Below, one piece after another: positions 1 through 9,166 of a DNA stretch of 20,000 nt. A model generated the notes under the pieces. The model had not been told where the DNA came from and searched no databases. It was given only the letters and a program-made list of their open reading frames with translations. A program made the translations under genes and the position numbers. The DNA lies in the IMG/VR virus record IMGVR_UViG_3300021431_000013; one strand, 5' to 3'. This DNA is from an uncultured virus (IMG/VR IMGVR_UViG_3300021431_000013) (taxonomy: Duplodnaviria; Heunggongvirae; Uroviricota; Caudoviricetes). Every line of letters begins with the position of its first letter. Within the stretch, counting starts at the first letter, position 1.

Positions 1-2
1 AC

Positions 3-173
3 TTGCTTGCAGACTTGGCGGATTTGCTAATTGATGTCGATTTTCTGGAAATGCTGGCGCATAAACCAAAAGAAGGGTCGATTTATGACTGTGCCGGACA
101 GTTTACGTTTGAAGATAGTCAAAATGCTTGGAATGACGAAGATGAAGAAGACGATGACGAAGAATGGTGGTAG
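3..173 (+). CDS. 3' end of a hypothetical protein with an acidic C-terminus (5'-truncated by the window)
   Basis: Frame open from position 3: LLADLADLLIDVDFLEMLAHKPKEGSIYDCAGQFTFEDSQNAWNDEDEEDDDEEWW*, with TAG at 171-173 just before a promoter. Confidence 0.7.
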   Translation: MLADLADLLIDVDFLEMLAHKPKEGSIYDCAGQFTFEDSQNAWNDEDEEDDDEEWW

Positions 174-178
174 AAAAT

Positions 179-210
179 CTATTTACAAATTCTAAAGTGT
201 GTTATATAAT
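179..210 (+). promoter_or_regulatory. sigma-70/sigma-A-type promoter of the packaging/lysis operon
   Basis: TTTACA (182-187), 17-bp spacer, TATAAT (205-210), intergenic. Shares the 12-mer CTATTTACAAAT with the promoter at 7073-7104. Confidence 0.75.
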
Positions 211-233
211 ACAAATATAAGGGGGATATGTAC

Positions 234-479
234 ATGGGCAATGAAGACACTACACTTGCTATGGAAATTCTTAAAGAGTTGAAAGCGAGTGCAAAACGAT
301 GGTTCATAGCATTTATCATTATGCTGTGCATTGAAATTGCCACGATAGGCGGATTCTTATGGTATTTAAGTTTACCTGTTGAAGAATACGTATCTGTCGA
401 AAACGATAGTGGAAACGCTAACTACGTTGGCAATGACATGAATGGAGATTTGTACAATGGCAAAGATAACAGTAATTAA
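234..479 (+). CDS. small single-pass membrane protein, hypothetical
   Basis: GGGGG RBS at 221-225 fits ATG 234 better than ATG 228. Hydrophobic segment WFIAFIIMLCIEIATIGGFLWYL, followed by a polar Asn/Gly-rich tail. Confidence 0.75.
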   Translation: MGNEDTTLAMEILKELKASAKRWFIAFIIMLCIEIATIGGFLWYLSLPVEEYVSVENDSGNANYVGNDMNGDLYNGKDNSN

Positions 480-525
480 ACGTAGACGCGGAGGCGGCGG
501 GCGAAGAAAGCGTAGACGCAGATAA
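457..525 (+). CDS. 22-aa Arg/Gly-rich basic micropeptide MAKITVIKRRRGGGGRRKRRRR (not in ORF track)
   Basis: GGAG at 444-447, ATG 457, TAA 523-525 overlapping the next ATG (TAATG coupling). Fills the gap between two genes. Confidence 0.7.
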   Translation: MAKITVIKRRRGGGGRRKRRRR

Positions 526-872
526 TGAATTATAAGAAAACCTTATTCACGCTTCAGAGTGCTATTAACCGGCACTCTGAAGCTAAAGTATTAGTAACCA
601 CAAATCAATGGTACAGTGATAAAGAGAATAAGCCCGTAACTGTTTATCACATCAAACGCAGAACCTTAGATAAAGTAAAAAACAAAGAATCGGTTGAGGA
701 GATATTTAAAACGTATAGTTTAATCCAAGCGATTCTTTTTTTACGTGATTACTGGTACCTAGAAAATAATTGGGAACCACCGACTGATAATGAAATGTGG
801 AATGAGGTGAAAAGTAAATGGCCGAGCAACAAAAAAGAGGACGCGGCAGACCAAGAAAAGGCGAGTTCGTAG
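525..872 (+). CDS. hypothetical protein (115 aa)
   Basis: Start coupled to the micropeptide stop. Overlaps terS by 55 nt. No family recognised. Confidence 0.7.
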   Translation: MNYKKTLFTLQSAINRHSEAKVLVTTNQWYSDKENKPVTVYHIKRRTLDKVKNKESVEEIFKTYSLIQAILFLRDYWYLENNWEPPTDNEMWNEVKSKWPSNKKEDAADQEKASS

Positions 873-1303
873 TTCCAAGCAGAGGCAGAACGGCTACTAC
901 TCCACTATCACCAGCAGAACAACGTTTCTTGACAGAATATATTAAAACAAGCAATATAAAAGAAGCAGTTATACAAGCTGGCTATAAACCCACAGGAAAA
1001 CAGACGTATAGTAATATAGGTAGAAGGATACTAGGTAGACCAAATGTTCAAGCGGAGTTGGAAAGAGTTATGGATGAATTACGTAAAGAGACTGTAGCAA
1101 CAGCGGAAGAAGTTATGGCATACTTTACCGCAGTGATGCGTGGAGAACTGAATGACCAATTCGGACTTGACGCACCGCTTGCTGAAAGAACAAGAGCGGC
1201 CCAAGAACTTGCTAAACGTACTATTGACGTTGAGAACAGAGCGAAGGGCAATGCTGATGTAAATGTAGCAATTAAACTGGATTGGAATCGTGATGAGGAG
1301 TAA
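818..1303 (+). CDS. terS: terminase small subunit with an N-terminal AT-hook-like motif
   Basis: GAGGTGA RBS. LSPAEQRFLTEY..SNIKEAVIQAGY and ATAEEVMAYFTAVMRGE..DQFG..ERTRAAQELAKR are typical Terminase_2-like segments. KRGRGRPRK at the N-terminus. Confidence 0.9.
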   Translation: MAEQQKRGRGRPRKGEFVVPSRGRTATTPLSPAEQRFLTEYIKTSNIKEAVIQAGYKPTGKQTYSNIGRRILGRPNVQAELERVMDELRKETVATAEEVMAYFTAVMRGELNDQFGLDAPLAERTRAAQELAKRTIDVENRAKGNADVNVAIKLDWNRDEE

Positions 1304-1307
1304 TATT

Positions 1308-1547
1308 ATGTGGGCAAAGAAAGATACTATTATTAGAACGATTGTTCTTACTATTGCACTTGTAAACCAGGCACTTGCTATTTTTGGCAAAGAAGCATTT
1401 CCTGTTACTGAAGACCAAGTATATCAGCTTGTTACTCTTCTTATTACTATCGGAGCGGCTGTTTGGGCTTGGTGGAAGAACAACAGTTTTACACGACATG
1501 CAGTATTAGCAGATGAATATTTCAAGGAACTGAACGAGGGCAAGTAA
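1308..1547 (+). CDS. phage holin, SPP1 family
   Basis: GAGGAG RBS (1295-1300) before ATG 1308. TIIRTIVL.IALVNQ.L..FG and AWWKNNSFT..A..AD signatures, two hydrophobic segments. Confidence 0.9.
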   Translation: MWAKKDTIIRTIVLTIALVNQALAIFGKEAFPVTEDQVYQLVTLLITIGAAVWAWWKNNSFTRHAVLADEYFKELNEGK

Positions 1548-2509
1548 TGCAGAAGGCAATAGACATTAGTTGTTTCGATAGAGAGGTTGATTTTTACAAA
1601 GTCAAGAAAGATGGCTATGTTGCTGTAATTATTCGTGCAGGATACGGAATGACAAACGTTGACCCGTATTTCTATGAGCATATACAGCAAGCGAATAAAG
1701 CAAATATGCCAGTTGGTATTTATTGGTTTTCCTATTCTTGGGATGTCGATATGGCCAAGAAAGAAGCAAAGAAATGTCTTGAACTTATAAAGCCGTATCT
1801 AGTACAGTTACCAGTTTACTTTGACTTTGAGTATGATTCAGATAAATATGCAAAACGTAAAGGACATGCGGTTTCTAATGCTACATTAAATCAGATGGCT
1901 AATGCGTTTTGCAGTGAAATAGAAAAAGCTGGCTATCAAGCCGGCATCTATTTTAATAAAGATTACCGGAATAATCGTTTCTATAAAGATTTATTGAATA
2001 GCTACAGTAAATGGTATGCTTGGTACAATGAAGAACTCGATGATTATACTGTAGATTTATGGCAGTATACAAGCAAAGGCGAAGTTGACGGTATACCAGC
2101 AGATGATGAAGACTTAGATTATATAGTTAATAACCGTATTTTTAATAAGCCTATCGGAGAAGATAAACAAGAAACAACACAGGAAGAATATGTAAAAGCA
2201 CTTCAGATAGCCTTGAATGTTTCTTATAACATGAAATTGCCAGTTGACGGTAAGTTTGGCAAGATGACTGAAGCCGCAGTTACAATCAATTATCTTTTCT
2301 ATAAACGACCAACAATTAAGAATACACATGTATCATGGCTACAAGGTACATTAAAAACACTTGGCTATAAAATCGAAGTTGACGGAAGTTATGGACCTGC
2401 AACTGAAAAAGTTGTCAAACAATTCCAGTATGATTATGAATTATACATAGATGGATGGGCTGGTCCAAATACACACAAGAAATTAATTGAGGTACTTAGC
2501 AATGAGTAA
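1547..2509 (+). CDS. endolysin: GH25 muramidase with C-terminal peptidoglycan-binding (PG_binding_1-like) repeats
   Basis: IDIS, IIRAGYG, GIYWFSY, PVYFDFE and LWQYTS.G.V.GI motifs. C-terminal LQ..L..VDG.FG..T repeats. TAATG coupling to the holin. Confidence 0.92.
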   Translation: MQKAIDISCFDREVDFYKVKKDGYVAVIIRAGYGMTNVDPYFYEHIQQANKANMPVGIYWFSYSWDVDMAKKEAKKCLELIKPYLVQLPVYFDFEYDSDKYAKRKGHAVSNATLNQMANAFCSEIEKAGYQAGIYFNKDYRNNRFYKDLLNSYSKWYAWYNEELDDYTVDLWQYTSKGEVDGIPADDEDLDYIVNNRIFNKPIGEDKQETTQEEYVKALQIALNVSYNMKLPVDGKFGKMTEAAVTINYLFYKRPTIKNTHVSWLQGTLKTLGYKIEVDGSYGPATEKVVKQFQYDYELYIDGWAGPNTHKKLIEVLSNE

Positions 2510-3020
2510 GACATTTTTACAAAAAGATTGGGGAACAGTTAAAGGCATTTCAATGGCAAATGCAGGTTGCGGACCAACAGCAATAGCTGATATTGTCTAT
2601 AACGTAGATAAAGATATTACACCGGCTAAAGTTGCTAGTTGGATGGCTTCTAATAAATTTTTTATAGCTGGAGGTTCTACTCGTATTGGTATTTCCAGAA
2701 CATTAACGAAATACGGTTTTCAGTATTTATACTTTACCCCAGAACATACCGGAAACGAAGAGTGGAAGTTTGCTTTTGATTTATTGAAGAATAGCCGTGA
2801 ACACGAGTGTTGGGCAATATTACTTACAGTCGGCACAAAGAACGGCGGTAAAGATAACAAGTGGACGTATGGTGGTCATTTTATCGCAGTAACAGATTAT
2901 GACCCAGATACTGGAAAAGTTTATGTCAGAGACCCAGCCGGAAAAAATACTGGTTATCATAATCCAGATACTCTGAAATATGATACAAACGCATTGTGGA
3001 TAATCTGTAAACAGTATTAA
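2502..3020 (+). CDS. stand-alone C39-like (papain-fold) cysteine peptidase
   Basis: GAGGT RBS before ATG 2502. Q..W, AGCGPTA (Cys), GGHFIAV (His) and VRDP (Asp) catalytic pattern. No cell-wall-binding domain or signal peptide visible. Confidence 0.85.
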   Translation: MSKTFLQKDWGTVKGISMANAGCGPTAIADIVYNVDKDITPAKVASWMASNKFFIAGGSTRIGISRTLTKYGFQYLYFTPEHTGNEEWKFAFDLLKNSREHECWAILLTVGTKNGGKDNKWTYGGHFIAVTDYDPDTGKVYVRDPAGKNTGYHNPDTLKYDTNALWIICKQY

Positions 3021-3032
3021 GGCGGTGAGTAA

Positions 3033-4364
3033 TTGGCGACTAATCCAACATTTACAGGCGCCACTATATCGCTGAAAGATTGTATAATACCTATGTATGA
3101 CGATGTTTTGATGGACATATTAAAGCATCGTCATACACACTACATTTTCCCAGGTGGTCGAGGAAGTACTAAATCATCATTTGTCGGCGGTATATGTGTG
3201 CCAATGCTAATAATGCAGAATCCAAAAGTTCATGCAGTCTGTTTTAGAAAGGTTGCAAATACAATTCAAAATAGTATATTCTCGCAGGTTGTTTGGGGAA
3301 TATATCAGATGGGCGTTGAACAATTATTTAAAATACCGAAAACATACAGCACACCTATTGTATATTTACCAACAGGACAAATGATATACTTTATGGGTCT
3401 TGATGACCCAATGAAAGTAAAGTCTATTAAACCACCGTTCGGATATATTGGTGTTACGTGGTTTGAAGAACTTGACCAGTTTTCTGGTGAAAATGAATTA
3501 CGTACTGTAACACAGTCAACAATGCGTGGTGGTAAGGTGTTCTGGGATTTTAGAACATTCAATCCCCCTATCAGTAAAAACAACTGGGCAAATGAATATA
3601 CTGAAGACTGCGAAGTTTATAGGCAAGATAATACACTCGTTACTAGAAATACATATTTAGATGTGCCAGAAAATTGGCTTGGTCCTCAGTTCATAGAAGA
3701 AGCTGAAGACTTAAAGAAGATAAATCCAAGAGCATATGAACATGAGTACATGGGCATAGCTATTGGTACTGGTGGTGATGTATTTCAGAATGTTTGTGAT
3801 ATGGATATGAATGAACCAGTACCCACGTTCGATATATATGGAAATACTACTGGTGTTGTTCCTAAGTGGCAAACATTTGACCGTATCTATAACGGTATTG
3901 ACTGGGGATTTGCTCGTGACCCATTTCAATTTGTACGCTGTCATTTTGATAGAAGTCGATTAGACCTATATGTTTTTGATGAGTACAGAACACTTAAAAC
4001 TAGAAATGAGACAGTCTTTAAGATACTATATGAAGAGGAAAAGAAGCTGTCAACAAATGAACTTGTAATAGCAGATAGTGCCGAGGAGAAATCAATCGCA
4101 GACTTTAAAGCATACGGCGCCTATATACGAGGTGCTGTAAAAGGTCCAGATAGTATTAGATACGGTATTAAGTGGTTACAGGGTTTACGACATATTTATA
4201 TTGATAAACGTAGATGTCCGCATACATTTAGAGAATTTACTCAATATGAGTATGAACAAGACAAGGACGGTAACTTTGTTTCTGCTTATCCAGACGCTGA
4301 TAACCATAGTATTGATGCTGTAAGATATGCGATGGAGAAATACGCTAATAGGAGAGGTAATTAA
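3033..4364 (+). CDS. terL: terminase large subunit, PBSX/SPP1-like
   Basis: TTG start after AAGGCGGTGA. Walker A GGRGSTKS, Walker B WFEE, nuclease motifs GIDWGF, ADSAE and NHSIDAVRY. Confidence 0.95.
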   Translation: MATNPTFTGATISLKDCIIPMYDDVLMDILKHRHTHYIFPGGRGSTKSSFVGGICVPMLIMQNPKVHAVCFRKVANTIQNSIFSQVVWGIYQMGVEQLFKIPKTYSTPIVYLPTGQMIYFMGLDDPMKVKSIKPPFGYIGVTWFEELDQFSGENELRTVTQSTMRGGKVFWDFRTFNPPISKNNWANEYTEDCEVYRQDNTLVTRNTYLDVPENWLGPQFIEEAEDLKKINPRAYEHEYMGIAIGTGGDVFQNVCDMDMNEPVPTFDIYGNTTGVVPKWQTFDRIYNGIDWGFARDPFQFVRCHFDRSRLDLYVFDEYRTLKTRNETVFKILYEEEKKLSTNELVIADSAEEKSIADFKAYGAYIRGAVKGPDSIRYGIKWLQGLRHIYIDKRRCPHTFREFTQYEYEQDKDGNFVSAYPDADNHSIDAVRYAMEKYANRRGN

Positions 4365-5014
4365 TGAACTACGATGGTGGTAAATTACAAACACGAATAC
4401 TAGAGCAGAATATTTTAAATCTTACATATGCTCAGTTTGAAGGTGTTGGTGAGTATGATATTCCAGAAATGTATCCTGTTCATATAGATAATTTAAAAGA
4501 TGTACCTATACAAGGTTTTAATTTTGCGTTAAAAGAACAGCACCCAGAAAATATAGGTGTTCATTTCTTTTTACACGATTATCAATTTGAACGTGTATGG
4601 AAATATCCAGATAGATATGTTGAAGTATTAAAAAAATTTGCTTACGTATTATCACCCGATTTTTCTCCTTATGCTGATATGCCGAAAGCATTACAGATAT
4701 ATAATGTATATAGAAATAGATGGTGTGGTAGATATTGGCAAGAACACGGCATAAAAGTTATACCGACATTTACTATGGGCGATACAGATTTATTTAAAGT
4801 ATTCTGTACAGGTATTCCAAAGCATAGTACGATAGCAATATCAACAATGGGTGAAGGACGTTGGGGCAATTTTAGTTATTTACGTACTTGGTGGAATGTC
4901 ATACTCGCAGAATTAATGCCCGAGACAATACTGTTATACGGTAAAGATTTAACTAATGAGTTGAGCGGTAATATCGTATTTAAGAAAATGATAAGTTCAA
5001 AGGTGGCGATATAA
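4364..5014 (+). CDS. DUF4417 domain protein
   Basis: VHFFLHDYQFERVW, VLSPDFSPYADMP.ALQIYNVYRNRW.G..WQ..G..VIPT match the DUF4417 pattern as I recall it. TAATG-coupled to terL. Confidence 0.85.
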   Translation: MNYDGGKLQTRILEQNILNLTYAQFEGVGEYDIPEMYPVHIDNLKDVPIQGFNFALKEQHPENIGVHFFLHDYQFERVWKYPDRYVEVLKKFAYVLSPDFSPYADMPKALQIYNVYRNRWCGRYWQEHGIKVIPTFTMGDTDLFKVFCTGIPKHSTIAISTMGEGRWGNFSYLRTWWNVILAELMPETILLYGKDLTNELSGNIVFKKMISSKVAI

Positions 5015-5277
5015 TGGCTGTAAAGAGACATCGTGGTGGGAAATATTCAAACGTTACTTTTGCTAATGGTGATTTTGGTAGAAATGACGCTGGTACTGCT
5101 AGAGAAGCAAGACCTAATACTGCTGGTCAAGCTAGGGAAATGGGTCGTGGTGATGGAACGTACACGTTCTATAGTAGGTCACGTGGTTATTTAACAGTAC
5201 ATGCTGATTCATTTGAAGAAGCATGGAGGCAAGCACGATTACTTGGTTACAGTAAGCGTAACTATAGGAAGAGGTAA
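5014..5277 (+). CDS. small basic Arg/Gly-rich protein coupled to DUF4417
   Basis: AAGGTGG RBS and TAATG overlap. MAVKRHRGGK N-terminus, internal repeat AGTAREA/AGQAREM, basic C-terminus SKRNYRKR. Confidence 0.75.
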   Translation: MAVKRHRGGKYSNVTFANGDFGRNDAGTAREARPNTAGQAREMGRGDGTYTFYSRSRGYLTVHADSFEEAWRQARLLGYSKRNYRKR

Positions 5278-5279
5278 CT

Positions 5280-7061
5280 ATGACATTAGTAGGAAATGTT
5301 TTAACAAGACTAAAGGAGTTATTACGTACAATGATTGGAAGTAAAACCATTGAACAGGCGTTAAACGTCAACTATGTTATTTCTCCAGAAATGGAAAAAG
5401 CGATTCAGCTATGGACAAATCTTTATAAGGGTAAACCTGAGTGGGTACACGAACCGACACAGGATGACCCAACCAGAGTTGTCAGTTTAGGTATTCCAGC
5501 TATGATTGCAAGTGAAAAAGCAAGAATGGCATTACTTGAGTTTGAATCTAAAATCACTGCTCCGATAGAAGAAGTCGAAGTAGATAATCCTAATTATACA
5601 GGACCGGATACTGATGATTTAGGAAATTTAATTCCTTCTGCTGAACCAAAAGTTATTACTGAGACAAGAATTATTGGAAATCCAGAAAGAGCAGATTACT
5701 TAGATAAGCAATACGTAAAACTGAAAAAGCAATTAAGAAAGCAGATTGAATATGGTATTGCTAAAGGCGGTCTTGTTATTAAGCCATATGTTGTTGTTAA
5801 TGGAACAAAAACAACAGACGGCATCAATTCTGATATTACACCCACAATAGATATTGAATTTGATTTCGTTCAAGCAGATTCATTTTACCCGCTTGCATTT
5901 GATGCTTCTGGTAAGATTACTGAAGCCGCATTTATTCAGACCAAAACAGAGAAGGAATATATTTATCGAAGACTTGAATATCATAAGTGGGAGAATAATG
6001 TTGTTACTGTTTTAAATAAAGCATATAAGAGCAAAAATCTAGTTGGCAACACGGTCAATGATTCTCAACTTGGTGATGAGATTCCATTAACAGATGTACC
6101 AGAATGGAAAGATTTGCAGGAGCGAACAATTATTAAGAATGTTACCCAACCGTTATTTGCATACTTTAAAATGCCAGATGCAAATACGATTGATACAACA
6201 AGTCCGCTCGGTGTATCTGGTTTTAGCCGTGCTGTATCGTTAATCAAAGATGCTGATTTACAGTATTCAAGATTACTTTGGGAATATGAAGCTGGCGAAA
6301 TGGCTATTGATATTGATAGGGACGCACTTAGAGAGGTTGATTTACCTAACGGACACACTCAGACTATACCAAATCATCTGCAAGCACGATTATTCAGAAA
6401 AGTGGACTTAGGTTCTGCATCTGATACATATCAGCCGTTCGCACCGTCATTACGTGACCATAATTATATAGATGGTCTTAATACTATTCTTATGAGAATC
6501 GAAGATGTATGCGGCATAAGTAGAGGCGCACTTTCAGATAGTGCTGAAGTTGCCAGAACTGCTACTGAATTAAAGATTCTTAAACAGCGAAGCTATCAGT
6601 CCAATGCAGAAATACAGAGTGCTATTGAAGACGCCCTTAGAACCGTTGTTTATATAATGAACGTTTATTCTACATTATATCAGATAACACCTGAGGGTGA
6701 ATACGAGATAAACTTTGAGTGGGATGATAGTATTATTGTAGATATAGACGAAGAAACAAATAAGCGTGTAATTCTGTTAGATAAGGGTATCACTAGTGTT
6801 GTTGAAACTCGTATGTGGTATTTCGGAGAAACAGAGCAACAGGCTAGAGAGGCACTTCAGAAAGTACGTGAGGAAAGACTTGAGAATTTACAAAATGAAC
6901 TGCTGATGGAATCCACGTATTTTAATAATAAGCGTGACGGCGAAGAAGGCGAAGGGGAAAACGGCGAGAATAATAATCAGAACTTCAATAATAAAAATAA
7001 GATGTCAAATAATAAAAATCCAGACAATAATAAGTCTGCAAATAAGGCACCTACCAATTAA
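5280..7061 (+). CDS. portal protein (A118/SPP1-like) with an Asn-rich low-complexity tail
   Basis: Position after terL. RRLEYH, PLFAYFKMP.AN.ID..SPLGVS.FSRA, YSRLLWEYEAG, TATE.K and FEWDDSI motifs. Confidence 0.92.
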   Translation: MTLVGNVLTRLKELLRTMIGSKTIEQALNVNYVISPEMEKAIQLWTNLYKGKPEWVHEPTQDDPTRVVSLGIPAMIASEKARMALLEFESKITAPIEEVEVDNPNYTGPDTDDLGNLIPSAEPKVITETRIIGNPERADYLDKQYVKLKKQLRKQIEYGIAKGGLVIKPYVVVNGTKTTDGINSDITPTIDIEFDFVQADSFYPLAFDASGKITEAAFIQTKTEKEYIYRRLEYHKWENNVVTVLNKAYKSKNLVGNTVNDSQLGDEIPLTDVPEWKDLQERTIIKNVTQPLFAYFKMPDANTIDTTSPLGVSGFSRAVSLIKDADLQYSRLLWEYEAGEMAIDIDRDALREVDLPNGHTQTIPNHLQARLFRKVDLGSASDTYQPFAPSLRDHNYIDGLNTILMRIEDVCGISRGALSDSAEVARTATELKILKQRSYQSNAEIQSAIEDALRTVVYIMNVYSTLYQITPEGEYEINFEWDDSIIVDIDEETNKRVILLDKGITSVVETRMWYFGETEQQAREALQKVREERLENLQNELLMESTYFNNKRDGEEGEGENGENNNQNFNNKNKMSNNKNPDNNKSANKAPTN

Positions 7062-7072
7062 AAATTAACAAA

Positions 7073-7104
7073 CTATTTACAAATGTGGTAAAATGTATTA
7101 TAAT
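7073..7104 (+). promoter_or_regulatory. sigma-70/sigma-A-type promoter of the scaffold-capsid-tail transcript
   Basis: TTTACA (7076-7081), 17-bp spacer, TATAAT (7099-7104). Same CTATTTACAAAT as 179-190. Confidence 0.8.
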
Positions 7105-7110
7105 TTAATT

Positions 7111-7297
7111 GAAAGTGTAATCACTTTCGGTGGTTCATTTTTATTTTCTCCTCGACCGGGGTATAAGTATTCGCTTATACCCCTATCGTAGAGGACAGTC
7201 CAGCGTAATGACATATAAAGAACGCACATTCTAACCGCAGACCGTAATGCGGATATAGAAGTAACGGATATAAAAGAATGTAAAGGAGAAATGTAAC
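7111..7297 (+). ncRNA. structured 5' leader of the scaffold gene (two hairpins plus two tandem H-type pseudoknots), candidate cis-regulatory RNA
   Basis: GAAAGTG/CACTTTC (7111-7128); GGGGTATAAG/CTTATACCCC (7158-7183); GTC/GAC with GCGT/ACGC (7198-7225); CCGCA/TGCGG with CCGT/ACGG (7235-7267); ACATTCT/AGAATGT (7226-7232/7275-7281). Confidence 0.65.
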
Positions 7298-7936
7298 ATG
7301 ACAGTGAAGGAACTTTTTGACAAGGCCGAAAATAATACTCTTACTTGGGAGCAGTTTCAAGCGGCTATGGGTAATGCTAAATTCGTTGATTTGAATGAGG
7401 GCGGTTATGTATCTAAACAAAAACATGATGATGAACTTAGTCATCGAGACGCTACGATACAACAATTAAAGGATACTATCGCAACCAGAGATAACGATTT
7501 AAAAGCATTGCAGACAACGTTAAAAGATGCTGGCGATATTGAAGAACTCAAGAAGGCATCTAAAGATTTATCTGATTTACAGAAAAAGTATGACAAAGAA
7601 ACAAAGGCATATGCGGCTCAGTTATCACAGCAGGCATATGAATTTGCAGTCAAAGATTTTGCTAACAGTAAAGAGTTTACAAGTAAGGCTGCAAAAAGAG
7701 ACTTTATACAGTCTATGATTGCAAAGAAACTCCAGTTTGAAGATGGTAGAATTATCGGGGCAGAAGACTTTGTACAAATGTACTCACAAGATAATGGTGA
7801 TGCGTTTAAAGTAGCTGAAGACCCGAAACCCCAGTTTACACAGGGGACACAGAAACAAAAGTCTGAAACGAAACTTACTTTATCTGAAATGATGAAGATG
7901 AAGAACGAAAATCCAGACGCAACTATTGATTTTTAA
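7298..7936 (+). CDS. capsid scaffolding protein (Phage_GP20-like)
   Basis: AAGGAG RBS. GGYVSKQK motif followed by a long coiled coil. Lies directly before the major capsid gene. Confidence 0.85.
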   Translation: MTVKELFDKAENNTLTWEQFQAAMGNAKFVDLNEGGYVSKQKHDDELSHRDATIQQLKDTIATRDNDLKALQTTLKDAGDIEELKKASKDLSDLQKKYDKETKAYAAQLSQQAYEFAVKDFANSKEFTSKAAKRDFIQSMIAKKLQFEDGRIIGAEDFVQMYSQDNGDAFKVAEDPKPQFTQGTQKQKSETKLTLSEMMKMKNENPDATIDF

Positions 7937-7951
7937 TAGGAGGTATAAAAC

Positions 7952-9166
7952 ATGCCGATGCCGCAATTTGATAGTAAAATTTTTAACGGCGAAGTGTTTC
8001 AGAGATACGTAGATAGAGTACCGAATCTGAAACTTAACGAGTTACTTAGGTCCAGAGCAGTTGTTGCTAGACAGGACCTCGCAGGTGCAATGGCAGACCA
8101 GGTTGGTGGTAACTATCTTACTACTCCGCTGAAAGGTCTTATTAGTGGTTCTGTTCCGCTCAACTATGATGGCGTAACTGATATTACTTCCCAGACCACT
8201 CAGACTTTCAGCCACTCTCGTGTTGTTGTTGGTCGTGCCCAAGCATGGACTGAGAAGGATTTCTCTTATGACATCACTGGTGGTGTTGATTTCATGGAGA
8301 ATGTAGCACAGCAGGTTGCTGAATACTGGGATGAAATTGACCAGGCTACTATTGTAGCAATTCTGAATGGCGTATTTGGTATGACTGATACCGAAGGTGC
8401 TAGATTCGTTTCTGAGCATACTCACGATATTTCCACAGTTCAGAATAGTGAAGGCAAGACTGGTTTTATGGATGCAACTTCTCTGAATACGGCTATTCAG
8501 AAAGCAAGTGGTGACCATAAGAACAAATTTACTCTTGCAATTATGCACTCCGCAGTTGCTACTAATCTTGAGAATATGAAGATTCTTGTATATCTCAAGT
8601 ATAACGATGCAAACGGTATGGAACGTGAAACTGGCATGGCTACTCTGAACGGTAGACTTGTTATGATTGACGATAGTATGCCGGTTCTGGAAGACCAGAG
8701 TACAGCTACTTTTTCTAAAACTTCTGATACTACTGTACAGCCGGGTAAGACTTATTACACTCGTACTGGTACATCTGGTAATTATCAGTATCATGTTGTA
8801 GTTAATCCTGTAGATGATAGCATTAACGGCTACTATGAAAAGACCGGTAACGGCGACCCGCTGTATGTAACTTATCTTTTCGGAGACGGCGCTCTTGAAT
8901 ATACTAACTGTGGTGCAAAGGTTCCGGCAGAAATGAGCCGTGACCCGAAGACTAACGGTGGTCAGGATACGCTTTACAACAGACAGAGAAAATGTTGGGC
9001 ACCTTATGGTATTTCCTTTACTAAAGCCCACATGTCTACTCTGTCTCCGACAGATGCAGAACTGTCTGATGGCGATAACTGGGAACTTGTAAATACTGGT
9101 GGTACAAACAAGAAGTATATCAACATCAAAGCTATTCCGATTGCGAGAATTATCTCTAAGGGCTAA
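7952..9166 (+). CDS. major capsid protein
   Basis: AGGAGG RBS. FDSKIFN.EVF..Y..RVPN, NYDG.TDI, GRAQAWTEKDF, IMHSAVATNLE, NGRLV.IDD.MP, TYLFG.GA and RD..TNGGQDTLY.R motifs. Codon usage looks like a highly expressed gene. Confidence 0.93.
   Translation: MPMPQFDSKIFNGEVFQRYVDRVPNLKLNELLRSRAVVARQDLAGAMADQVGGNYLTTPLKGLISGSVPLNYDGVTDITSQTTQTFSHSRVVVGRAQAWTEKDFSYDITGGVDFMENVAQQVAEYWDEIDQATIVAILNGVFGMTDTEGARFVSEHTHDISTVQNSEGKTGFMDATSLNTAIQKASGDHKNKFTLAIMHSAVATNLENMKILVYLKYNDANGMERETGMATLNGRLVMIDDSMPVLEDQSTATFSKTSDTTVQPGKTYYTRTGTSGNYQYHVVVNPVDDSINGYYEKTGNGDPLYVTYLFGDGALEYTNCGAKVPAEMSRDPKTNGGQDTLYNRQRKCWAPYGISFTKAHMSTLSPTDAELSDGDNWELVNTGGTNKKYINIKAIPIARIISKG

Follow-up and report, generated by a model that had tools for sequence, protein, structure and literature searches.

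The head of the late region in the uncultured tailed virus IMGVR_UViG_3300021431_000013 (IMG/VR) raises the question of whether a 22-codon, arginine-rich open reading frame (ORF) at positions 457-525 is a gene and, if so, what its product does. In the following, the window denotes the whole stretch of viral DNA that was analysed, 20,000 nucleotides (nt) in length. An original prediction made from this sequence had held the ORF to be a genuine, unannotated and independently initiated micro-gene, and had suggested as its product either a DNA-condensing core peptide packaged with the genome or an arginine-rich RNA-binding regulator of the lambda N type. Here we find the claim of a gene borne out by the evidence of frame, start, Shine-Dalgarno (SD) sequence and codons. 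With high confidence, 457-525 can be regarded as a real protein-coding micro-gene that starts at an SD and ATG of its own, both overprinted on the 3' end of a membrane-protein gene, ends on the start of the next gene, and belongs to an accessory gene pair found widely in uncultured tailed phages from the guts of ruminants and other animals. The features on which this rests, with protein lengths in amino acids (aa), are as follows.

228..479, + strand, gene of an 83-aa single-pass membrane protein with an acidic C-terminal tail (ORF and family alignment)
444..447, + strand, Shine-Dalgarno GGAG of the micro-gene, with a 9-nt spacer to the ATG, within a Gly codon of the membrane-protein gene
457..525, + strand, arginine-rich micro-gene, ATG at 457, TAA at 523-525, 22 codons plus stop, peptide MAKITVIKRRRGGGGRRKRRRR
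523..527, + strand, TAATG stop/start junction from the micro-gene to the 115-aa gene, for which an SD is absent here
525..872, + strand, 115-aa gene, the usual downstream neighbour of the micro-gene

Read from the window sequence, 12 of the 22 residues of the peptide are Arg or Lys and none is Asp or Glu, which confirms the composition originally given, as the GGAG at 444-447 with its spacer confirms the claim of an own ribosome-binding site. The coupling through TAATG is indeed reused in the operon, with 1-nt stop/start overlaps of the same type at 1547, 4364, 5014 and 10606. The micro-ORF shares its first 23 nt (457-479), in the +1 frame, with the 3' end of the 83-aa ORF. No other ATG-started ORF of 12-50 aa with an Arg+Lys fraction of at least 0.45 occurs in the six frames of the window, and in 277,899 bases of related loci (both strands) 97 such ORFs lie at the micro-gene site and 23 elsewhere. 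As had been proposed, coding by the micro-gene also accounts for a GC-rich island and a direct repeat: the GC content is 0.48-0.50 across 451-540 (60-nt windows) compared to 0.33-0.40 in the flanks, and the two copies of CGTAGACGC at 481-489 and 511-519 each correspond to Arg-Arg-Arg codons. Since this repeat is not kept in close relatives, where the first CGT is changed to AGA or the second CGT to CGC, it is a by-product of Arg coding. Close relatives also carry paired 1-nt indels at 447-455, between the SD and the ATG (a T gained after 447 and one nt lost at 453), which preserve the 9-nt spacer and alter two codons of the membrane-protein tail.

Neither megablast of 1-3000 nor tblastn of the 115-aa protein gave a match in GenBank phages. 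Relatives were found in IMG/VR, where a near-identical virus record (G001) served for comparisons. In the first four IMG/VR loci, the 115-aa proteins are 90, 56, 44, and 38% identical to that of the window, and a short Arg-rich ORF occupies the corresponding position in all four. A profile search with the 115-aa protein gave 47 usable loci, including the window itself and one locus of identical DNA (L005). The membrane-protein gene is found in 37 of these, every one of which carries the micro-ORF, whereas the micro-ORF occurs in none of the 10 loci without the membrane-protein gene. In its distribution, the micro-gene follows the membrane-protein gene, and neither terS nor the 115-aa gene. A second search using the 83-aa protein returned 197 gene copies from IMG/VR and metagenome contigs, with some contigs counted from both collections. 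At least 60 nt of downstream sequence was available for 193 copies, and a micro-ORF, defined as 12-50 aa with Arg+Lys making up at least one third, was present at 185 of them. These represent 111 distinct micro-peptides on 121 distinct membrane proteins, which fall into 41 clusters at 70% identity and have a median pairwise identity of 52%, ranging down to 30%.

The peptides follow the consensus MA[KR][IV]TV[RK][RK]RA[VT]RSR, then 3-4 residues and RRRRR, and are 16-38 aa long (median 22). Among the 111 distinct peptides the start codon is listed as ATG in 107 and is GTG at the same place in three, and 103 of 107 distinct homologues have an SD-like motif at a distance of 4-13 nt ahead of the start, the spacer being 8-9 nt in 81 of them. 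The stop codon is positioned -4 to +9 nt from the next start in 100 of 106 loci. In 105 of the 111 cases the micro-ORF overlaps the upstream gene by 14-74 nt in the +1 frame, while the remaining six show no real overlap, and these six loci indicate that the micro-ORF initiates independently and is not a frameshift tail. A programmed +1 frameshift giving an Arg-tailed membrane protein was considered and ruled out on the same six distinct loci; a basic tail of this kind was seen in none of the 120 membrane-protein family members listed.

More distant examples have the same layout. A scan with a degenerate DNA pattern recovered two higher-GC phage contigs (L213 and L219), and GenBank record PP511522.1 (Dulem virus 35) was matched through the membrane protein. 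In all three, a diverged membrane protein with a GNANY-like tail motif is followed by a basic micro-ORF in the +1 frame and a small helix-turn-helix (HTH) gene. In PP511522.1 (L225 2712-2777) the micro-ORF is a Lys/Arg-rich frame of 21 codons, 12 of them basic, lying over the end of coding sequence XCD05121.1, and this sole GenBank record bearing the micro-gene leaves it unannotated.

Conservation could reflect either the DNA or the peptide, and several observations point to the latter. All six Arg codons are used at the background proportions of long ORFs in the same loci (AGA 0.48 versus 0.47, CGN 0.33 versus 0.37), which excludes a fixed nucleotide motif as well as a rare-codon device. In the non-overlapping part, the ratio of nonsynonymous to synonymous changes (pN/pS) over 66 pairs is 0.46 in the micro frame compared to 1.25 and 1.24 in the other two frames, and in the doubly coded stretch the pairwise identity is 0.48 in the micro frame compared to 0.37 in the membrane-protein frame. 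We further compared the window to contigs from four runs of four studies that are 95-99% like it. Four positions of the ORF are substituted (471 A>G, 481 C>A, 483 T>A, and 489 C>T), all synonymously in the micro frame; 481 C>A together with 483 T>A turns CGT into AGA, and 471 A>G changes a residue in the membrane-protein frame. For one low-depth contig, three of five differences were not listed by place. No RNA dataset was among the matches listed by the sequencing-run search. The original prediction had proposed, as checks, that frame, start and ribosome-binding site be conserved and that Arg codons change synonymously in relatives, and both patterns are found, the former in the frame at 185 of 193 loci and the SD-like motif at 103 of 107, the latter in the CGT to AGA change.

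Across the family, Arg makes up 42.7% and Lys 10.6% of residues, and only 5 of 2517 residues are acidic. The net charge ranges from +7 to +15 (mean 12.1) and stays near +12 although the length varies 2.4-fold. In the middle of the peptide it is composition rather than position that is conserved, while the conserved parts are the N-terminal MA[KR][IV]TV and the RRA[VT]RSR core. It could still be argued that 457-525 is not a gene but a chance frame in a purine- and GC-rich spacer, or a DNA site such as pac, given that the frame is very short and of low complexity and is reported by no gene caller. A profile built from 24 peptides also gave no match at E<=0.001 among 1.84 billion representative proteins, an outcome expected for a low-complexity profile of 24 positions and for genes too short to be called, and silent on how rare the peptide is. 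The conservation, frame, start, SD, codon and synonymous-change data all contradict this explanation, which we consider extremely improbable.

The pair appears not to accompany every related phage. In three virus records of high completeness (G020 and G021, 100%; G022, 94%) the 115-aa gene is present, but the membrane-protein gene was not found by a profile search, which a very diverged copy could escape, and no micro-ORF lies beside the 115-aa gene. Based on these three records, the membrane-protein gene and the micro-gene look like an accessory pair. Eight membrane-protein-gene copies (four distinct) have no micro-ORF and form a subgroup of their own (L063/L169, L068/L178, L088/L207/L208, and L195). 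As read by eye from the sequences, they are followed by a terminator-like hairpin, and no fewer than three of the four distinct sequences occur as a second copy, on a contig where another copy does have its micro-ORF. One of them, L063, retains a vestigial ATG-GCG-AGA-TAG at the usual start of the micro-ORF.

What, then, does the peptide do? We tentatively favour, with somewhat less than even confidence, a free polycation, whose ligand would be a polyanion and most probably nucleic acid, and whose translation would in addition pass ribosomes on to the next gene. On this reading the product would be disordered, would keep its net charge at roughly +12 over lengths of 16-38 aa, and would act in trans in the infected cell, the likeliest targets being phage DNA around packaging, or RNA. 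The better-conserved N-terminal MA[KR][IV]TV may serve a partner as a short, strand-like point of attachment. In cis, termination on the micro-ORF would deliver ribosomes to the next gene, which is SD-less in the window, and this would keep the output of membrane protein, peptide and downstream protein in a coupled ratio.

Several points weigh against this proposal. The pN/pS estimate comes from 66 pairs that are non-independent, and the constraint is moderate. At 74 of 100 loci the C-terminal Arg codons double as the SD of the next gene (AGG-AGR or CGG-AGG), so that part of the Arg richness needs no explanation at the level of the peptide. The strict linkage to the membrane protein and the recurrence of lysis genes nearby point away from packaging; an r1t-type holin is the next gene in two loci, and an SPP1-type holin is encoded 783 nt downstream in the window. 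The pair was not found in the three relatives of 94-100% completeness, indicating that it is not a core part of packaging, and no specific nucleic-acid target of the peptide was identified. The same observations speak against the packaged DNA-condensing core peptide of the original prediction, since the micro-gene is tied to the membrane-protein gene rather than to terS or head genes, and since the pair was not found in those near-complete relatives.

Searches for similar proteins were of low sensitivity for queries of this kind. Pfam at E up to 10 with five peptides gave a weak and irrelevant match to H-K_ATPase_N for the window peptide and no match for the other four, and scans of PHROGs and NCBIfam with the peptide and longer homologues returned nothing usable, as short low-complexity queries have little power. 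The absence of any ribosomal-protein model among the Pfam and NCBIfam matches at E up to 10 bears on another explanation, in which the product is a mini-protein that, in the manner of the smallest and most basic ribosomal proteins, binds the ribosome or rRNA and alters host translation late in infection. Its size and composition would fit, and phages can encode ribosomal proteins, but linkage to a membrane protein would not be expected of such a product, and we find this reading very unlikely.

This linkage directs attention to the membrane protein itself. The 83-aa protein begins with a short charged segment that closes with an invariant R-W-F; a single hydrophobic span, an equally invariant W-Y..P motif and then the acidic tail follow, the net charge of the tail having a median of -8 and a mean of -7.4. 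It matches no known family. Its own family is large (2910 clusters at E<=1e-3). No name is attached to any of the 120 members listed, three carry a weak VirB8 flag, and the ESM Atlas labels the nearest clusters as viral hypothetical proteins. The peptide could be a partner or regulator of this protein in an accessory role related to the membrane or lysis, for example in lysis timing, dissipation of the membrane potential or phage exclusion, with the peptide contacting the acidic tail or anionic lipids. Such a role would agree with the strict co-occurrence of the two genes (37 of 37 versus 0 of 10 loci, and 185 of 193 copies in the larger set), with the opposite charges of the tail and of the peptide (mean +12.1), and with the lysis genes recurring nearby, namely the r1t-type holin in L119 and L122 and the lysis genes at 1308-3020 in the window. 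The four distinct lone copies with their terminator-like hairpin likewise represent a layout typical of accessory membrane genes. However, the charges of tail and peptide do not co-vary (Spearman +0.15, p 0.12, n 110), and holin adjacency is seen at just two of 106 distinct loci. According to the positive-inside rule, the side of a membrane span flanked by Lys/Arg stays cytoplasmic, and the K/R residues preceding the hydrophobic span would by this predicted topology put the acidic tail outside the cell, at a distance from a peptide in the cytoplasm. The linkage could moreover merely reflect that the SD and start of the micro-gene lie in the membrane-protein gene. A complex prediction of the membrane protein with the peptide (the L119 pair, with alignments) gave no verdict, at a score of 0.00 in a run made without controls. 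Taken together, we regard a membrane-directed partnership as possible but rather less probable than a free polycation acting on nucleic acid.

The layout of the locus could also suggest that the peptide as such is functionless after release, and that only translation of the micro-ORF and termination on the next start matter in cis, where the polybasic nascent chain might tune how ribosomes terminate and re-initiate. The micro-ORF bridges the membrane-protein gene to the start of whichever gene follows: among 106 loci this is the 115-aa family in 90, small HTH proteins in seven, the r1t-type holin in two, and various others in seven. At 74 of 100 loci the SD of the following gene is formed by the final Arg codons, and in the other 26 the next gene has no SD-like motif, as in the near-identical relative L001 and, by the same reading, the window. 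The 16-aa versions would, in addition, stay within the ribosomal exit tunnel until release. On the other hand, coupling alone needs no set composition, yet Arg is kept with its six codons at background proportions and the pN/pS is 0.46 compared to about 1.25, the MA[KR][IV]TV and RRA[VT]RSR motifs are conserved, and the net charge remains near +12 over the 2.4-fold length range. No attenuator-like RNA structure was found in 436-545, the predicted fold of which was no better than that of shuffled sequences (z = +0.46). A purely cis-acting bridge therefore seems to us an unlikely explanation of the peptide, although passing on ribosomes is part of the nucleic-acid-binding reading that we prefer.

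The second suggestion of the original prediction, an N-type antiterminator or regulator acting on the structured leader at 7111-7297, can be weighed by the distribution of this leader, for which the following features are relevant.

182..210, + strand, promoter-like TTTACA-17-TATAAT (11 of 12 consensus matches, tied best in 1-8000; a consensus match only)
7076-7104, promoter-like TTTACA-17-TATAAT with hexamers identical to those of the site at 182-210
7108-7131, terminator-like hairpin preceding GP20-a

The site at 182-210 lies immediately ahead of the membrane-protein gene and is likely, judging from its consensus match and position, to be the start of the transcript bearing the micro-gene; in total, promoter-like sites are no more numerous than in shuffles. 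The leader corresponds to Rfam GP20-a (RF02991) at 7194-7292, with 58.4 bits compared to a gathering score of 47.2. That it is a real curated structured RNA, preceded by a terminator-like hairpin and by a promoter-like site sharing its hexamers with that of the micro-gene, would agree with N-type regulation, as would the resemblance of the peptide composition to arginine-rich RNA-binding motifs (ARM). However, GP20-a is present in 32 of 35 related records (21 above the cut-off), including G020, G021 and G022, the 94-100% complete records in which no membrane-protein gene was detected and the pair was not found, and this weakens the proposed leader binding. Furthermore, peptides of 16-38 aa are too short to hold the N regions that contact NusA and RNA polymerase, the Pfam, NCBIfam and PHROG searches gave no family match, and no boxB-like element was identified. 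We therefore think there is very little chance that the peptide acts on this leader in the manner of N. The listings and abstracts returned by our literature searches contained no description of a function of GP20-a.

So far, several families of small basic peptides and short ORFs are known to which the micro-gene can be compared. Protein J of the Microviridae (phiX174, G4, and alpha3) is a small basic DNA-binding packaging protein, essential in these ssDNA phages, and is thought to neutralise the charge of the nucleic acid. Like the micro-peptide, it comprises a few dozen residues or fewer, is extremely basic and is tightly coupled with neighbouring late genes. In contrast, the C-terminus of protein J is a hydrophobic capsid anchor, whereas that of the micro-peptide is an Arg/Lys run in nearly all 111 cases; J belongs to small ssDNA phages, and the present locus to a tailed dsDNA phage with TerS, TerL, SPP1-type portal, holin and endolysin; and J is essential, while the micro-gene looks accessory and tied to a membrane-protein gene. 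The micro-peptides did not match the J family by sequence in Pfam, PHROGs or NCBIfam, at the low sensitivity of these searches. Protamines, adenovirus mu and VII and baculovirus P6.9 share with the micro-peptide a content of more than half Arg/Lys, virtually no acidic residues and Ser/Thr/Gly spacers. Such polycations condense DNA or RNA, and the micro-peptide may by analogy be expected to behave similarly, but they are found in eukaryotic cells and viruses and the likeness is compositional and not one of homology. Given that the pair was not found in three near-complete relatives, the micro-peptide is also not a universal virion part of this phage group.

Like the micro-peptide, the ARM of lambdoid N and Nun proteins is a short Arg-rich segment, and it too is encoded near the beginning of a long operon with terminator-like hairpins and a structured leader. 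N proteins are, however, about 100 aa long with further domains, whereas the micro-peptides measure 16-38 aa in whole, and co-occurrence with a cognate RNA is not seen, as GP20-a occurs independently of the micro-peptide. Bridge ORFs and leader peptides also start inside one gene and stop on the start of the next, which often lacks an SD, but differ in that the amino-acid composition and motifs of the micro-ORF are constrained and no attenuator structure was found. The micro-gene is nearest to Microviridae J and protamine-like core peptides by composition and size, and to bridge ORFs by layout, and it has the defining features of none of the J, protamine-like, N-type or bridge-ORF families. 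Among the listings and abstracts found in our literature searches, no comparable peptide of a tailed phage was described.

Compared to known polycationic peptides of viruses, three things are new about the micro-gene, namely its occurrence in tailed dsDNA phages, its overprinting on a membrane-protein gene, and its accessory nature. Charge neutralisation in tailed phages is usually credited to ions and polyamines, and should the peptide indeed bind DNA or RNA, the biology of these phages would gain a polycationic peptide. If it instead works with the membrane protein, the two would form a new two-part accessory pair beside lysis and packaging genes. A more far-reaching picture, which we put forward as improbable but of consequence, is that tailed phages of gut Firmicutes carry a dedicated protamine-like peptide, the synthesis of which, at the start of the late operon, keeps pace with that of a membrane protein. 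It would serve either as a counter-ion loaded into the capsid with the genome or, from within the cell, as an effector late in infection on an anionic membrane, wall or nucleic acid. In the former case it would be the first peptide DNA-condensing agent in Caudoviricetes, and in the latter a new kind of late-infection effector paired with a membrane partner. Since the carrier family is large, with its 2910 clusters, the peptide is probably present in thousands of gut phages. The micro-gene also offers a clean case of an overprinted functional gene far below the cut-offs of gene callers and with more than 100 distinct natural variants, and the small size of the pair makes it accessible to direct tests with synthetic peptides and simple reporters.

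The rest of the mapped region identifies the window as late-region DNA from a tailed phage of Gram-positive type, related phage records being 40-80 kb long. Following the 115-aa gene, these features were assigned.

818-1303, TerS (PF03592)
1308-1547, SPP1-type holin
1547-2509, GH25 endolysin with PG_binding_1 repeats
2487-3020, C39-like peptidase
3033-4364, TerL
4364-5014, DUF4417 protein
5280-7061, SPP1-type portal

The lysis cassette (holin, GH25 endolysin, and C39-like peptidase; 1308-3020) thus lies between terS and terL, and not at the end of the late operon. The N-terminus of TerS (about 836-862) reads ..KRGRGRPRKG.., which we take to resemble a basic motif of the AT-hook type. The contig of one homologous locus (L050) was binned to a Paludibacteraceae (Bacteroidota) metagenome-assembled genome, in contrast to the Gram-positive-looking lysis genes of the phage, and the binning may be wrong.

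For the 115-aa protein, a match to phrog_33130, a PHROG of unknown function, was obtained (E 1.7e-5), and Pfam gave none. An AF2 model with a mean predicted local distance difference test score of 86 suggests an alpha-beta-beta-beta-alpha arrangement followed by two helices. A Foldseek search of this model against the PDB returned no match at E<=0.001, nor did a sequence profile against PDB sequences give any. The best match of the model in VIA-align was T7 Gp1.2 (Z 6.7, root-mean-square deviation 2.8 over 72 residues), with ribosome hibernation factors and dsRNA-binding domains lower down (Z 4-5.6); as all of these scores are under the tool's level for unrelated best matches, no family was assigned. 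Against BFVD, the model matched four uncharacterised Siphoviridae sp. proteins. Among the other next genes, the r1t-type holin directly follows the micro-ORF in L119 and L122 (PF16945, E 4e-18), and the small HTH proteins have a weak, sub-threshold likeness to sigma-70 region 4. Finally, in two database proteins, P0121 (213 aa) and P0122 (196 aa), the membrane protein continues directly, in a single frame, into the 115-aa family, and these could represent either a real fusion or an artefact of assembly or frameshift.

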